A stretch of DNA of 33,724 bases from Methanosarcinales archaeon (GTDB lineage: Archaea > Halobacteriota > Methanosarcinia > Methanosarcinales > Methanocomedenaceae). Location of the stretch: positions 1 through 33,724 of the forward strand of contig DAOUSF010000003.1 in NCBI GenBank assembly GCA_030627385.1, given 5' to 3'. The translations under genes and the position numbers were made by a program. Shown here one piece after another: positions 8,365-22,607 of the stretch (positions are counted from its first letter, which is position 1; the number at the start of each line of letters is the position of its first letter). The notes under the pieces were generated by a model. The model was given only the letters and a program-made list of their open reading frames with translations. It did not search any database and had not been told where the DNA came from.

Positions 8365-10020
8365 ATGAATCAGTCCCAATTCATAATGCGTTTTGATCCC
8401 CTCACAATTAAACATCTTGGAGTACGGATGTATTCTACTCTTACTCCTGCATTAGCTGAAATCATTTCAAATTCCTATGATGCCGATGCAACAAATGTAA
8501 CTGTTAAATTAATTCAAGATGGCAACGTCCCAAAAGAAATAAAAGTTGAAGATGATGGAATGGGGCTATCATTTGATGAAATAAATGATAAATTTCTAGT
8601 TATTGGACGCAATAGACGGGATGATATAGGTGATGTTCCTTCACCTAAATATAAACGTTATTCAACCGGGAAAAAAGGACTCGGCAAACTTGCACTTTTT
8701 GGTTTAGCAAATACCATCACAATTTCAACAATACAGAAAGGAAAAGTAAATGAATTTGTATTAGACTGGGACGATTTAATGGCAGCAACAGGAAATTATC
8801 AACCTAGAGCGACAATTACAAACGAAAATACTACAGAAGCCGATGGTACAGTAATTACGATGTCAGGCTTAAAAAGAAAAACGCCGTTTGATTTTACAGG
8901 TTTGGCAGATAGTTTATCTCGAATATTTATTTTCGACGAGACATTTAATTTATTGATTGAATCATCTTCTGGAGACCGAACATCTATAGATAATAAAAGA
9001 AAATACAGTTTGATCACAAAACAATTTGAATGGAATCTTGACTCCACTCTATATGTACCACTCGATTGTCCATATTTCGGAAAAATTGAAGGCAATATCA
9101 TAACTTCAGATAAACCATTGAAACCATCATCAGGTCTGAGAGGAATTACCTTGTTTTCGAGAGGAAAACTTGTTAATGCACCTGAATATTTTTCTGATAC
9201 CCAATCAAGTCACTTTTATCAATATTTAACCGGATGGATAAGTGTAGATTTTATTGATGAATTAGAAGATGATGTTATATCAACAAATCGTCAGTCTATA
9301 GATTGGGAACACTCGGAAATGGCAAGCCTTAGGGAATTTCTTTCAGGGATAGTATCTCAAATTAATGGCGAATGGCGACTAAAGCGAAAAGAAATAAAGG
9401 ACGATGATTTAAAAGAAAAAACAGGAATTGATACAGAAAAATGGATAAATACTTTAACGGGTGATGTAAAAAATAATACCAAACAAATTATCGAATCATT
9501 GGGCGAAGAAGATGCTCTTGAAAAATATACTCCTGTCATAAAAGCACTTCATAATATGATTCCCGAATATCCATTTTATCATTGGAGACATTTGCATTCT
9601 GAAGTTCAAATAATATCAAAAGAATATTATGAAACTGAAAATTATTATACTGCATTTCTTGAAGCAATAAAAAAATATTCTAATGCCGTAAAATCAAAAT
9701 CCGGCAGCAGTGCAACTTCTGATCTTAATTTAATGGGAAAAGTTTTTAACGACTCAGATGGAATTCTAAAGGTTATAGGAGAATATAAAAAAATAGATGG
9801 GGTCAATTTTTCGGAAGAGACACAAAGAAATGTGCAAAATGGACAACAACATTTATCACAAGGTATTGTTGCTGGTGGACGAAATCCTCTTTCTCATGAA
9901 GAAATTGGTGAATTAAAAATCTCCGGTTTATTCTCTGAGAGTGACTGTTTAGATATGCTTAGTTTATTATCTCATTTGTTTAAAAGACTGGATAAATCAA
10001 CAAAGGAAACTAATGATTAA
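8365..10020 (+). CDS. GHKL (MORC-like/HATPase_c_3) ATPase fused to a C-terminal TIGR02391 (Ymh, HEPN-like) domain
   Basis: GHKL motifs EIISNSYDA, EDDGMG, GKKGLGK and DGT. The C-terminal region LHSEV...YYTAFLEA...LMGKVF...GRNPLSHE carries an Rx4H motif (9880-9897). Confidence 0.8.
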   Translation: MNQSQFIMRFDPLTIKHLGVRMYSTLTPALAEIISNSYDADATNVTVKLIQDGNVPKEIKVEDDGMGLSFDEINDKFLVIGRNRRDDIGDVPSPKYKRYSTGKKGLGKLALFGLANTITISTIQKGKVNEFVLDWDDLMAATGNYQPRATITNENTTEADGTVITMSGLKRKTPFDFTGLADSLSRIFIFDETFNLLIESSSGDRTSIDNKRKYSLITKQFEWNLDSTLYVPLDCPYFGKIEGNIITSDKPLKPSSGLRGITLFSRGKLVNAPEYFSDTQSSHFYQYLTGWISVDFIDELEDDVISTNRQSIDWEHSEMASLREFLSGIVSQINGEWRLKRKEIKDDDLKEKTGIDTEKWINTLTGDVKNNTKQIIESLGEEDALEKYTPVIKALHNMIPEYPFYHWRHLHSEVQIISKEYYETENYYTAFLEAIKKYSNAVKSKSGSSATSDLNLMGKVFNDSDGILKVIGEYKKIDGVNFSEETQRNVQNGQQHLSQGIVAGGRNPLSHEEIGELKISGLFSESDCLDMLSLLSHLFKRLDKSTKETND

Positions 10021-11050
10021 ACAAAATTTCAAAGCCATTGATCTTTTCTCTGGTTGTGGTGGTCTGACCGAAGGAATGAAACAAGCCGGGTTTAAAGTGA
10101 TTGCAGCAGTGGAGATAGATCACTATGCGGCCGAAACTTACAAAAATAACCACAAGAATGTAAATTTATTCGAACAGGATATAACAAATGTGAATCCGGG
10201 TGATATTAAAATAATTTTGGGCGGGGAGCCATTGCATTTATTGGCTGGTTGCCCACCATGTCAAGGTTTTTCATCCGTCCGAAGGTTAAATAAAAAAGAA
10301 CCTGTGAAGGATGCAAGAAATGATTTGATTTGGGAATATTACAGGTTTGTCGAAGCTCTGATGCCCTTAACGCTTATGATGGAAAACGTTCCGAGTTTGG
10401 CGGATTATAAACCCTTTCAAAATATGGTAGAAAAATTAAAACATCTGGGATATTCTAGTGTCAAATATGAAAAAATTATGACTCATGAGTATGGCGTTCC
10501 GCAAAGAAGGCGGAGATTGGTTCTGGTGGCTTCGAGAATCGGGAAAATCGATATACCCCAAGGAAATAAAAAATTCAAAACCGTTCGGGATTGTATAGGC
10601 AACATCGAACCAGTCGAATCCACCACGGATTTACTGCACAAAATATATCCTATACATACTCCAAAAGTATATGAAAAAATTTCCAAAATCCCTTTGGACG
10701 GTGGAAGTCGAAAAGATTTACCTGTTGAGTATCAGCTGAAGTGCCATATGAAAGAAAATGTTGGATTTAATGACATTTATGGAAGATTGAAATGGGATTC
10801 TTTTTCATCGACCATTACTGGCGGTTGTCTGAATCCGTCAAAGGGTAGATTTCTTCATCCTCAAGAAAACAGATGTATTACGGCGAGGGAGGCGGCATTA
10901 TTGCAGACATTTCCCAAAAAATATAAGTTCCCTATAAATATCAATAAAAGTGCCATTGCTCTTATGATAGGGAATGCCTTACCGCCCGAATTCAGTAGAA
11001 TACAGTGCAATAATATTTATAACCACTTGAAGGATAATTTAAATGGTTGA
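10013..11050 (+). CDS. DNA (cytosine-5) methyltransferase
   Basis: FSGCGG (motif I), GCPPCQGFS (IV), MENV (VI), QRRRR (VIII) and IGNALP (X); overlaps the upstream gene by 8 nt. Confidence 0.95.
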   Translation: MIKQNFKAIDLFSGCGGLTEGMKQAGFKVIAAVEIDHYAAETYKNNHKNVNLFEQDITNVNPGDIKIILGGEPLHLLAGCPPCQGFSSVRRLNKKEPVKDARNDLIWEYYRFVEALMPLTLMMENVPSLADYKPFQNMVEKLKHLGYSSVKYEKIMTHEYGVPQRRRRLVLVASRIGKIDIPQGNKKFKTVRDCIGNIEPVESTTDLLHKIYPIHTPKVYEKISKIPLDGGSRKDLPVEYQLKCHMKENVGFNDIYGRLKWDSFSSTITGGCLNPSKGRFLHPQENRCITAREAALLQTFPKKYKFPININKSAIALMIGNALPPEFSRIQCNNIYNHLKDNLNG

Positions 11051-11459
11051 CAAATTTTCAAAACACAAACGTTCCGAAATAATGAGTCATATCAAATCGA
11101 AGAATACGAAGCCCGAAATAACTGTGAGGAAAATCATCTATTCGTTGGGTTATCGATATAGACTGCATCGAAAAGATTTACCGGGTAAACCAGATTTGGC
11201 TTTCATCAAGAAAAAAAAAGTAATTTTCATAAACGGTTGTTTTTGGCATGGACATTCGGGCTGTAAAAAATCGGCCTTGCCAGATACAAATTACGAATTT
11301 TGGAATGATAAAATAAAAAATAATGTCAATCGAGATACGCAAAATTATAAACTATTGGAAGATATGGGTTGGAAATATTTGTTAATTTGGCAATGTGAAA
11401 TTAAAAATTATAATCTTGAAAATATTAAATCAAATATTATACACTTTTTAAACGAATAA
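11043..11459 (+). CDS. vsr: Very-short-patch repair endonuclease Vsr
   Basis: RSEIMSHIKSKNTKPE, LPGKPD, FINGCFWHGH and IWQC motifs; overlaps the methylase by 8 nt. Confidence 0.95.
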   Translation: MVDKFSKHKRSEIMSHIKSKNTKPEITVRKIIYSLGYRYRLHRKDLPGKPDLAFIKKKKVIFINGCFWHGHSGCKKSALPDTNYEFWNDKIKNNVNRDTQNYKLLEDMGWKYLLIWQCEIKNYNLENIKSNIIHFLNE

Positions 11460-19494: not shown

Positions 19495-19536
19495 TTGTTA
19501 GTACAGGCCCAAAATGATTATTTGAGGGATTTGATT

Positions 19537-20385
19537 TTGAAAATAATCGGAGGACCCGCATCTCAACTGTTAGCAAGCAGAGTGGCTGCGAAACTGAATT
19601 GCGAACTTGCGCTGTGTAAGTCCAGGACGTTCCCGGATGACGAAAAGTATATCCGCATCATAGACGATATCGGTCCGGAAGCTGTAATAGTACAAAGTAC
19701 AACAACCGACTCGGATTTAGTAGTACTGTTGCAGCTTATCGATGCATGCAGTTCTGCTAATCGCATCCATGTTGTAATCCCCTACATGGGCTATGCCAGA
19801 CAGGACAAGATATTTAACCAGGGCGAAGCGCTCAGTGCCAGGGCCATGGCCCGGACCATTGAAGCCGATAATGTGATCACTGTGAATATACATGAGGATT
19901 CTATACTCAATTACTTCAGGTGCAATTCCGTAAATATCAATGCTGCACCCTTGATGGGACAATTTGTAAGTGCTATGGATCTGCACGATCCAGTGATATT
20001 AGCTCCCGATAAGGGTGCAAAAGAACTGGCAGCTTCGGCTGCAAAGGAGATGGGGATCGAATACGATTACCTGGAAAAGAAACGGATAAGCGGCGACACT
20101 GTGGAAGTGAGCCCAAAGAACCTTGATGCCAGTGGCAGGGATGTGGTGATACTGGATGACATAATATCCACAGGCGGTACTATGGCAGAGGCGGTGCGCA
20201 TGCTCAGGGAACAGGGTGCATCCGATGTATATGTTGCCTGCATCCACCCGGTACTGGCCGGCAGTGCTGTAAACAAACTATATCATTCAGGCGTAAAGGA
20301 CCTGATCGCCACCGATACCATTGAAAGAGCCATTAGCAGGGTCTCAGTTGCACCCATACTGGCACAGGCCCTTAAGGAATTATGA
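19537..20385 (+). CDS. prs: Ribose-phosphate pyrophosphokinase
   Basis: FPDDE, PYMGYARQD, APDKGA and DDIISTGGT motifs; TTG 19537 chosen from the archaeal MKIIGGPAS N-terminus. Confidence 0.95.
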   Translation: MKIIGGPASQLLASRVAAKLNCELALCKSRTFPDDEKYIRIIDDIGPEAVIVQSTTTDSDLVVLLQLIDACSSANRIHVVIPYMGYARQDKIFNQGEALSARAMARTIEADNVITVNIHEDSILNYFRCNSVNINAAPLMGQFVSAMDLHDPVILAPDKGAKELAASAAKEMGIEYDYLEKKRISGDTVEVSPKNLDASGRDVVILDDIISTGGTMAEAVRMLREQGASDVYVACIHPVLAGSAVNKLYHSGVKDLIATDTIERAISRVSVAPILAQALKEL

Positions 20386-20388
20386 TCT

Positions 20389-21312
20389 ATGGGTTCCCCA
20401 AAAAAGATGAAACTTATGGCTCCTGCCGAATCCATGGCTACTGCTGTTAATGTAATAGAGGCGGGTGCTGATGAGATTTATCTTGGCCTGGAGACTCCCG
20501 GACTTGTAAACCTGAACCTTTCAGGCAGGGGCAGGAGCTGCAACGCAAAAGACCAGGCCGAGTTAGCGGATATTGTAGCGTATGCCAATGACAGGGGTGT
20601 GCTTGTGGATTATACTGTCAATACCCCATTCATGGCTGATACACTTGAGGAGATGTATATCGAGCATGTGATGCGGGGGGTGGATGTCGGTGTGGATGCA
20701 CTGATCGTGGGTGAGTTCGGTGCTCTGGCATTGGTACATGAAATGGACCTTGGAATACCAATTCATGCCAGTGTGCTGCTTAATAATTTTAACAGGGGGC
20801 AGTTAGAGATGCTTAAGGACATGGGGGTAGCTAAAGTAGTCCTTCCATTCAAGATAACTATAGACGAGATACGACAGCTATCTGACCTGGGAATAGAACT
20901 GGAATTGTTCGGACAGTTCGGGTGTTCTAACATTAACGGCACCTGCCACCTGATCCATAATGCCGATGAAAGTATCAGCCTGGGGTTGCCATGCAGGGCG
21001 AATTACAGGGTGTCGGAAGACGGCAGGCTGCATAATATCCTGGATGCGGGCACGGACTGCTCGCTGTGCAGTATAGGGGATTTGACGGATGCCGGAGTAT
21101 CAGCCCTGAAGGTGGTTGGCAGGTGCATGAACCCTGAGATGATACGAACTATCATCCGGACATATCGCAGTGCTATTGATATGGTCCAGAACGGTGCGGT
21201 ACCTGGCGAGATTAAGGCATGGGTGCTGGAGGAGATACCTTTCTGGATGATGCTGTGCGACCAGGACAGATGCAAGTACTTGAAGACGCCCATAAATGAT
21301 TCATATATTTGA
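20389..21312 (+). CDS. Peptidase U32-family Fe-S protein, UbiU/TrhP-like subunit
   Basis: LMAPA, AGADEIYLG, IHASV and ALKVVGR motifs; Cys pattern C-x6-C-x15-C-x21-C. Confidence 0.88.
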   Translation: MGSPKKMKLMAPAESMATAVNVIEAGADEIYLGLETPGLVNLNLSGRGRSCNAKDQAELADIVAYANDRGVLVDYTVNTPFMADTLEEMYIEHVMRGVDVGVDALIVGEFGALALVHEMDLGIPIHASVLLNNFNRGQLEMLKDMGVAKVVLPFKITIDEIRQLSDLGIELELFGQFGCSNINGTCHLIHNADESISLGLPCRANYRVSEDGRLHNILDAGTDCSLCSIGDLTDAGVSALKVVGRCMNPEMIRTIIRTYRSAIDMVQNGAVPGEIKAWVLEEIPFWMMLCDQDRCKYLKTPINDSYI

Positions 21313-21321
21313 GGTTGACGT

Positions 21322-22200
21322 GTGATTGAGATACGGACTGCTGATGCGGCAAAGATCGGACTGGTTCTTGAGCTCTCCGGAGAGTTCGGGTTGAATGTGG
21401 GTATTGGAAGTGAGTGCTGTGTCCATAAGTTACCCAGTCCCGGGCAGGTGGATGAGATTGCTTCACAGGTGGATGACCTGGCTGTGGTCACGCCCATCAC
21501 ACCGCAGAAACATTATGACAGGGTGCTGGACTTTATCAGGGGGCTGCCGCGTGGTGTAAGGCTGGTTGTCAATGATGTGGGTGTGCTGCACTCTTTGTAT
21601 CGGGATGGTACGCTGGATGATTTTAGTGCTGTGGTGGCAGGCCGGGGTATTGTGCATACGTCCGAGGCATGTCCGTGGGTGGACCATTTGCTGCGGGATG
21701 AATCGAAAGAAGTGAAGGATGCTTTTTTGCAGACCAATCTTAACTACAGCAGGACTTTGGGATTTTTCAGGGATATGGGTGTTACGGCTCTTGAGACCGA
21801 CCTGGAATTGAGGACGGTTGAGGCTGCGCTGAGAACGGGACTGCCTGTGGCCGGTCATGCTGAATTTATTGCCGTATCGTATGCCCGTTCCTGCCATACT
21901 GCCAGGTTCTTTGGTGAAGTGCCTCCTGGTTGTACGGGAAGGTGTAATGCTCCTATGGAACTGGAACTGGTGGATATGTTCGACCTGTCTGGCTCGCCGC
22001 CGGGGTTTGCACAGCCCAGCCCTGAGATGCTTGGGATTTTTCCTAAACTGTACTTGCTGGGTGCTACTATTTTCATGAAGAAGGATGTGCATTTTGTCCA
22101 GGGTATGGAGAGGGTAATTGTTAATGGGGATATGTATGATCCTGCAAAACTGAGGGATGTTGTGATGGCTTTTGTTGAGGGTATGGGGAAGCCGGTCTGA
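21322..22200 (+). CDS. Second U32-family protein, UbiV-like subunit
   Basis: N-terminal GSECC, VVTP, VVND and ARSC-x12-C-x3-C (UbiV-type Cys spacing); GAGG RBS and GTG start 9 nt after the first U32 gene. Confidence 0.72.
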   Translation: MIEIRTADAAKIGLVLELSGEFGLNVGIGSECCVHKLPSPGQVDEIASQVDDLAVVTPITPQKHYDRVLDFIRGLPRGVRLVVNDVGVLHSLYRDGTLDDFSAVVAGRGIVHTSEACPWVDHLLRDESKEVKDAFLQTNLNYSRTLGFFRDMGVTALETDLELRTVEAALRTGLPVAGHAEFIAVSYARSCHTARFFGEVPPGCTGRCNAPMELELVDMFDLSGSPPGFAQPSPEMLGIFPKLYLLGATIFMKKDVHFVQGMERVIVNGDMYDPAKLRDVVMAFVEGMGKPV

Positions 22201-22424: not shown

Positions 22425-22463
22425 CAAATGTAAAATAAAACGGCATATTATATTCAGGACTAG

Positions 22464-22541
22464 TGTCAAGTCAACCCTATAATGTATCCAAATACGCTAT
22501 CAATACACCTTACAATCGGACACTTTGATGTTGACTTGACA
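22464..22541. mobile_element. MITE-like element 2 with 12-bp terminal inverted repeats TGTCAAGTCAAC
   Basis: TGTCAAGTCAAC (22464-22475) / GTTGACTTGACA (22530-22541), flanked by CTAG and CCAG; 16 of 17 positions pair over 22459-22546. Confidence 0.65.
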
Positions 22542-22607
22542 CCAGTTACATCTTGTCAGGGGTATACCGAGACTGCAAGATGGCAAATTCAGGCCCGGAT
22601 AAGGTGA

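Follow-up and report, generated by a model that had tools for sequence, protein, structure and literature searches.

A UbiU-UbiV-like pair of U32 proteins in anaerobic methanotrophic archaea: a candidate O2-independent hydroxylase

Two adjacent genes, here called A and B, that resemble those of the U32 hydroxylase UbiU-UbiV are found on contig DAOUSF010000003.1 (GenBank assembly GCA_030627385.1) of a Methanosarcinales archaeon of the family Methanocomedenaceae. The whole stretch analyzed, 33,724 nucleotides of the forward strand, is referred to as the window. The pair is tied unusually sharply to the phenazine-type anaerobic methanotrophic archaea (ANME): it is nearly universal in the lineages that carry it, missing from their methanogenic kin, and does not occur together with the menaquinone pathway. 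The best explanation, to which we give a rough probability of 0.5, is that A-B is a heterodimeric, O2-independent, prephenate-using U32 hydroxylase acting on a small aromatic metabolite, most likely the membrane electron carrier of ANME-2a/b, -2c and -3. A first-pass annotation of the window had proposed a heterodimer of the UbiU/UbiV type with a substrate other than ubiquinone; co-inheritance, a natural fusion, a complex model, a profile match to UbiV, and clade placement now support that proposal.

Gene A matches the U32 model PF01136 with 102.6 bits (cut-off 22.4) and is thus a member of the U32 superfamily. No Pfam or NCBIfam model matched B, whose U32 assignment in the first pass came from motif recall. 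Profile-profile comparison pairs B with a five-row UbiV profile at 97% (E 1.2e-10), aligning the three C-terminal cysteines as well as the N-terminal one, and with the A profile at 92.5%, supporting B as a UbiV-like U32 homologue. Both proteins have the four-cysteine motif of the superfamily, in the patterns first read: C179-x6-C186-x15-C202-x21-C224 in A, and C33 plus C191-x12-C204-x3-C208 in B. The first reading did not list C227 and C295 of A. E172, C179, C186, C202, C224, C227, K241, G244, R245 and C295 are invariant in 31 family rows of A; C224, C227 and C295 are the candidates for the fourth cluster ligand. The 41 family rows of B, reaching down to ~20% identity, show no variation at C33, C191 and C204, and >90% of them keep C208. 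The A motif appeared in 0.02% of 5000 shuffles and the B motif in 0.1%, and R-x-C-x12-C-x3-C occurs in one of the 2401 open reading frames of the genome.

Both proteins are short and acidic (pI 4.7 and 5.1). As first noted, neither has an extra RNA-binding domain in a Pfam scan; DUF3656 (PF12392), a C-terminal Cys pair with U32 domain, and the U32_C domain (PF16325) are also absent from both. The model of B is a confident barrel with a predicted local distance difference test score (pLDDT) of 91.6, which Foldseek matched to generic triosephosphate isomerase (TIM) barrels only, all with E worse than 0.001. A PDB sequence search with A gave no match at E up to 1. In the ESM Atlas the nearest clusters consist of unnamed proteins from bacteria (0.93-0.94, under the tool's mark for recognition), and the nearest named cluster, 37% PF01136 at 0.84, is a lead only.

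Several observations indicate that A and B work as a pair. Among 392 Methanosarcinia genomes A was found in 49, B in 50 and both in 47 (52 carriers); in the 5 single-gene cases either the genome is incomplete or the gene is at the end of a contig. Genus g4 retains both genes although they are on separate contigs. A natural A-B fusion (P0263) matches the A profile with 279 bits at 1-318 and the B profile with 152 bits at 360-623. For the modeled A-B complex the score was 0.93 in three runs, whereas the best of three controls gave 0.00; 95% or more of the contacts were shared, and the partner pLDDT was at least 91. The mark for this score, which 116 of 157 solved pairs and 2 of 215 mismatched ones attained, is only roughly valid for the alignments used here. 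A is thus predicted to bind B as a heterodimer, in keeping with the first-pass proposal, and the traits of UbiU-UbiV, adjacent genes, co-occurrence and a heterodimer (here predicted), are all found. Sequence and fold searches yielded no solved U32 heterodimer, only the single protein Mk0906.

The pair forms a clade of its own, as a U32 phylogeny of the kind suggested in the first pass demonstrates. In a 22-row maximum-likelihood tree, with references from annotated records checked against NCBIfam and Pfam, the ANME proteins (100/99) are nested with bacterial pair members in a 100/100 clade, separate from UbiU (its own 100/100 clade) and from the TrhP and RlhA-type rows. A 76-row tree built in quick mode only agrees with it (SH-aLRT 99). 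The pair family is on a long branch, and a tree constraining its clade with UbiU was not rejected (p-AU 0.199); by sequence, the pair clade may be the sister of UbiU. A scores 92.7 bits with the UbiU model NF047963 (cut-off 440) and 56 bits with the TrhP model NF011996 (cut-off 534), and B is unmatched by the UbiV model NF047965 (cut-off 275). True UbiU and UbiV controls score 462-547 and 353-356 bits. The pair therefore lies below the UbiU-UbiV equivalog cut-offs and outside the UbiU clade.

The host is, as judged from sequence, an ANME-2a-like methanotroph and not a methanogen, because A is 96% identical to a gene of Ca. Methanocomedens (L011). Lineages of the other genomes were read from the best PDB matches of McrA, one genome per lineage code: ANME-2c (f4, 9QM5), ANME-2d (f5 and g13, 9QQT), ethane oxidizers (f3, 7B1S), ANME-1 (f17, 3SQG), Methermicoccus-like (f7, 7NKG), and Methanosarcina (g30, 8GF5/1E6Y). 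We take f8 to be Methanotrichaceae, and g31 was read as Ca. Methanovorans (ANME-3) from protein scores equal to those of L020, a record of that name. A was counted at E 1e-55 or better, with at most 5-6 candidates scored per genome in the class and phylum scans.

The pair occurs in ANME-2a/b, -2c and -3 and in one basal genome of the ANME-2d family (G109). In f1, B was found in 15 and A in 16 of 19 genomes, plus the genome of the window (G000); in ANME-2c the counts are 24 and 22 of 27. Family f6 has the pair in 9 of 177 genomes, all of them g31 (9/10), and f5 in 1 of 53 (G109), with 0/49 for Methanoperedens (g13). The pair is absent from f2 (0/1), f3 (0/6), f7 (0/3), f8 (0/105), and the methanogenic Methanosarcinaceae (0/167; Methanosarcina 0/59, others 0/108), so the knock-out in Methanosarcina that was initially suggested is not feasible. 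In ANME-1, B was found in 0/54 and A in 0/4 genomes. A broad B profile run on 401 genomes of the phylum hit f1 only (3/401; f6 0/52). A rerun of A that scored every candidate in a selection of 52 genomes divided them alike: 14 carriers had an E of 1e-137 or better, and all others 1e-47 or worse. Since ANME-3 sits among 167 pair-less methanogen genomes, re-acquisition of the pair by ANME-3 would be more parsimonious than repeated loss. The prs-A-B genes of two loci titled Anaerolineales (L003) and Nanoarchaeia (L013) are 95% and 80% identical to those of the window, and the titles or bins of these loci look wrong.

The menaquinone genes of the futalosine pathway show the opposite distribution. 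MqnA/D (PF02621), searched in 119 genomes (21 of the 49 g13 genomes were taken, mostly for completeness), was found in 0/52 pair carriers, 38/42 pair-less genomes of alkane-oxidizer lineages, and 0/19 methanogens. By pair-less lineage, the counts are 1/1 in f2, 5/6 in f3, 24/24 in f5 except G109, 6/9 in ANME-1 and 2/2 in f24. In 10 genomes, MqnC matches above the cut-off divided along the same line. The sole ANME-2d-family carrier keeps the order prs-A-B (L201, G109:C89) and has no MqnA/D or MqnC match. ANME-2 and -3 remove much of the seafloor methane, and their membrane carrier is assumed, not measured: methanophenazine is predicted, not shown, in ANME-2a/b/c and -3, its pathway was unresolved as of 2026, and its potential of -165 mV is awkward for electron passage to sulfate reduction at -217 mV (bioRxiv 2024.05.23.595608, PMC9012536, PMC13748539). 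If the pair tailored this carrier, methanotrophs would need the pair and methanogens would not.

Bacterial and other relatives point to small molecules. A profile search gave 484 B-like 50%-clusters. Of 17 chosen B relatives scanned, two are fused to an acyl carrier protein (ACP) domain (P0158, P0162) and one to a methyltransferase (P0274). A metagenome scan covered 12 of 64 parts, and about 15 of the best 80 loci retained have non-ANME pairs. The closest of these with long flanks are L083, L061, L062 and L063. Directly before the pair in L083 (2-11800) are genes for 3-deoxy-D-arabino-heptulosonate 7-phosphate (DAHP) synthase, ketosynthase III (KS III), two AMP-ligases and an ACP. In L061 (3-10930) the pair accompanies an ACP, AMP-ligases, KS III, a radical S-adenosylmethionine (SAM) protein, and a pyridoxal phosphate (PLP) decarboxylase, and in L062 and L063, KS III and a methyltransferase. 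These four loci represent an apparently undescribed class of small-molecule pathways of anaerobes with O2-independent tailoring. Taken together, the clusters and the ACP and methyltransferase fusions favor small-molecule tailoring. More distant pairs (L086, L089, L095) are accompanied by genes for radical SAM proteins of the Tes-like and B12 types and for UbiE-like proteins, the Tes-like genes preceding the pair in L086 and L095; others (L078, L079, L081, L084) occur with hydrolases, sugar genes and transporters. In L076 and L082 two A-type genes lie head to head; as far as the contigs extend, a B-type gene follows each. A search for longer B-family proteins found none among 7996 scored, which is weak evidence, and a plasmid search with a B relative gave no match.

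The proposed mechanism follows UbiU-UbiV. By this analogy the presence of the clusters, prephenate use and hydroxylation are somewhat better than an even bet, and a small-molecule target overall stands at about even odds. Each subunit would hold one [4Fe-4S] cluster. The aromatic ring would be oxidized by two electrons through both clusters, as in the scheme of PMC10990095, and hydroxide would come from the decarboxylative aromatization of prephenate, which would leave as phenylpyruvate and CO2. The distribution, taken by itself, suggests as a tentative substrate, at well below even odds, methanophenazine or a carrier related to it, to which the pair would add a further hydroxyl dispensable for methanogens. 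A slightly more speculative version is that the marine ANME-2a/b, -2c and -3 do without plain methanophenazine, the pair adding a hydroxyl to it or building a related carrier; the altered potential would let methane-derived electrons flow to the sulfate-reducing partners. ANME-3 would have gained the pair again on turning from methanogen to methanotroph, and the menaquinone-using ANME would never need it.

A number of points weigh against hydroxylation of a carrier by the pair. The account in PMC10990095 records no U32 protein with direct hydroxylase activity in vitro as of 2024. In the pair family K-x-V/I-G-R replaces the K-x-E-G-R of UbiU, RlhA and TrhP, E-x6-C takes the place of E-x7-C, and cysteines are added; because of the lost Glu, the shorter spacing and these cysteines, the chemistry may differ. 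The ANME loci seen have no conserved neighbor that reveals the substrate, and no UbiT/SCP2 gene is beside the pair in the window or the annotated ANME loci (whole genome not searched). The anti-correlation with menaquinone genes rests on ~5-8 lineage-level events, kin not being independent, and any other trait that only ANME-2a/b/c/3 share would produce an identical pattern. MqnA/D was found in 0/6 pair-less genomes of the carrier lineages, which are 60-83% complete. G109, the genome that tells most, has an assembly 67% complete and without mcrA. Chorismate mutase was found in 5/5 genomes tested, which speaks for prephenate use, but the enzyme is a general one and gives prephenate no specific link to the pair. 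A second chorismate mutase-like gene in G021 showed no link to the pair, and UbiA (5/5), UbiD (5/5) and PhzF-like PF02567 (4/5, one weak) did not usefully separate ANME from methanogens.

Other functions for the pair were weighed against the distribution and the relatives. A possible though improbable target in place of the carrier is a soluble cofactor, or else a metabolite or signal that the consortium of ANME and sulfate reducers secretes. The closest bacterial relatives are tailoring genes in small-molecule clusters, both proteins are acidic and without an SCP2 partner, and prs, in some ANME-2a also fae-hps, is upstream; yet no ANME locus seen has a biosynthetic cluster, ANME-2c methyl-coenzyme M reductase (MCR) has canonical F430, and ethane oxidizers and ANME-1, presumably partnered with sulfate reducers as well (PMC9012536), do not have the pair. 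Less probable again is a two-cluster Fe-S oxidoreductase of other chemistry, such as desaturation, sulfur insertion or electron transfer. The loss of the Glu of K-x-E-G-R, the extra cysteines, the long branch, and the radical-SAM-rich contexts of distant relatives would fit such an enzyme, but E172, C179 and C186 of A correspond to RlhA E161, C169 and C176, required for hydroxylation, and the DAHP synthase of L083 and the methyltransferases beside or fused to B fit hydroxylation followed by O-methylation. RNA modification of the ho5C or ho5U type, comparable to Bacillus TrhP1/TrhP2, appears unlikely. Two of the three characterized U32 functions are RNA hydroxylations (PMC5727448, PMC10990095), TrhP1 is likewise short and acidic, making the missing extra domain not decisive, and an RlhA-type U32 gene is near the pair in L013 and L015. 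The 100/100 split from RlhA and TrhP and the absence of DUF3656 and U32_C nevertheless speak against it, the ACP and methyltransferase fusions favor a small molecule, and the genome has RlhA-type genes of its own, C153 with DUF3656 and C48 cut by the contig end.

The remaining alternatives, both among the substrates originally suggested, lead to other U32 genes of the same genome, which has five U32 families of differing distributions. Hydroxylation of a protein residue, the MCR tryptophan or a residue of another ANME-2/3 protein, is slightly less likely than an RNA target. The enzyme for the 6-hydroxytryptophan of ANME-2c MCR is not known (PMC12413448, PMC7581889), but the modification is also found in ANME-2d and ANME-1 (PMC12413448), where the pair is missing (0/49 and 0/54), and the pair was not seen next to mcr genes in the loci inspected. 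A better candidate for this enzyme is the C114-type gene (G000:C114:4592-6027, L029), a divergent U32 of 340-350 aa followed by DUF5402, because its distribution agrees with ANME-2c, -2d and -1: it occurs with DUF5402 in 165 of 392 class genomes, including 52/53 of the ANME-2d family and 26/27 of ANME-2c, and in 4/4 ANME-1 genomes checked, with tandem copies in ANME-1, against 0/59 in Methanosarcina. One copy is 2.1 kb upstream of mcrB. Further loci are L196 (6793-8213), L198, L199 and L200; the gene is also in several methylotrophic Methanosarcinaceae genera, predicting the hydroxytryptophan there.

Least likely is that ordinary methanophenazine owes its 2-hydroxy group to the pair. The ANME that carry the pair are those predicted to use methanophenazine, but its absence from Methanosarcina, the other methanogenic Methanosarcinaceae and, with the broad B profile, f6 largely refutes this function unless ANME have a non-orthologous route. 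The C148-type gene (G000:C148:4138-5343, L026), a 402-aa U32 in 22 of 52 genomes tested, is a candidate that fits ordinary methanophenazine better than the pair. It is present in 14/14 Methanosarcinaceae and 8/10 ANME-2a/b/c, and absent from the ANME-2d family (0/10), ANME-1 (0/4) and f8 (0/4). By inspection its neighbors are iscS/iscU/tusA-like, suggesting a tRNA or Fe-S role as a rival; these neighbors and the absence from f8 cast doubt on the methanophenazine role. Among the substrates first suggested, another aromatic cofactor fits the pair best.

The genes around the pair give little guidance. On the plus strand of the window the order is fae-hps, prs, A, B with successive gaps of 0, 3 and 9 nt (Table 1), confirming the adjacency and the 3-nt spacing first described. 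The link to prs holds in ANME-2a/b and G109 and fails in the ANME-2c and ANME-3 loci checked, and prs was therefore rejected as a functional partner; the flanks of A-B vary by ANME lineage. In genus g4 (L004, L012, L032, L041) A is between prs and the cdh operon, and B is tail to tail with tuf-rpsJ on another contig. In one ANME-2 locus (L009:4315-5814) a tetraether synthase (Tes) gene above the NCBIfam cut-off is just upstream of prs-A-B. In 4 RNA runs from 4 studies, relatives have contigs that extend over both genes, and a single contig spans the A/B junction, in each case without a silent-region or DNA control and hence not as proof of transcription; the runs shared at most 0.17 of sequence words. 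Elsewhere in the window, positions 22459-22546 are an 88-nt element resembling a miniature inverted-repeat transposable element, with 17-nt inverted ends 94% complementary and two further genome copies (C72, C242) at ~90% identity. At 8365-11459, a HATPase/Hypoth_Ymh protein, a C5 DNA methylase and Vsr form a likely restriction-modification cassette adjoining a Fic protein.

Table 1. Features of the A-B locus (positions in the window)
Feature	Position	Strand	Remarks
Gene A, large (UbiU-like) U32 subunit	20389..21312	+	307 aa; TIM barrel predicted
Gene B, small (UbiV-like) partner subunit	21322..22200	+	292 aa; GTG start; TIM barrel predicted
Predicted Fe-S ligand region of A	20902..21069	+	E172...C179-x6-C186-x15-C202-x21-C224-x2-C227
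C295 of A, further invariant Cys in W-x-x-x-C-x4-RCKY tail	21271..21273	+	absent in UbiU
C33 of B	21418..21420	+	aligned with N-terminal ligand Cys of UbiV (GSExC vs GExxC)
UbiV-type ligand motif of B, C191-x12-C204-x3-C208	21892..21945	+	
prs (ribose-phosphate diphosphokinase), upstream neighbor	19495..20385	+	context only

Whatever its substrate, the pair is among the few genes separating phenazine-type methanotrophs from methanogens. If the carrier proposal is true, phenazine-type anaerobic methane oxidation would have in it a key innovation and a two-gene marker. The distributions of the five U32 families also point to separate candidates for the MCR hydroxytryptophan and the methanophenazine hydroxyl. 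In the text available of Woods et al. (PMC12180501 supplement; bioRxiv 10.1101/2024.05.23.595608), which likewise compares ANME-2a/b, -2c and -3 with methanogenic Methanosarcinaceae, 'Peptidase U32' is listed as ANME-enriched and hard to interpret; these families may include gene A, and partner, motif, clade and substrate are not given there. The accessible literature on U32, archaea, ANME, UbiU/UbiV and MCR hydroxytryptophan contained no description of the A-B pair, and 'U32' is absent from the main text of Chadwick et al. (supplements not searched). A-B is a real, undescribed U32 subfamily, predicted to be heterodimeric.

Among known systems, the solved archaeal U32 protein Mk0906 (PDB 5D88) resembles A best in fold (Z 17.4, rmsd 3.3, 208 aligned) at 12% identity; tied with unrelated TIM barrels (CutC Z 16.9), it shows the fold of A only. 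TrhP, which makes ho5U34 of tRNA, belongs to the same U32 family and has a two-gene version, TrhP1-TrhP2, presumably represented by the Bacillus loci L149 and L150. The pair differs in clade, in falling below the NF011996 cut-off and in having no U32_C domain, and TrhP1 does not have the UbiV-type cysteines kept in B. RlhA, which makes ho5C2501 of 23S rRNA (PMC5727448), shares the U32 barrel with E...C-x6-C, and some RlhA1 proteins have a second U32 domain. A and B belong to another clade and do not have DUF3656, which is present in Escherichia coli RlhA and in C153, one of the host's separate RlhA-type genes.

UbiU-UbiV (E. coli YhbU/YhbV), an O2-independent, prephenate-dependent ubiquinone hydroxylase (PMC6747719, PMC10990095), is the closest parallel. 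Each of its subunits holds one [4Fe-4S], UbiU via C169/176/193/232 and UbiV via C39/180/193/197 (PMC6747719). Like A and B, ubiU and ubiV are adjacent short U32 genes, large then small, with no extra domains, and their products form a heterodimer, which is predicted here; Cx6Cx15/16C is common to the large subunits and CxnCx12Cx3C to the small ones. The pair differs in its archaeal host, its separate clade and the lack of ubiT alongside. In A the fourth Cys is 21 rather than 38 residues on, C227 and C295 are extra, and the Lys motif is K-x-V-G-R, and B has a ~28-residue insertion. By sequence, the pair is thus its own U32 subfamily, resembling UbiU-UbiV without being a member, and by analogy it would extend O2-independent U32 chemistry beyond ubiquinone and RNA.

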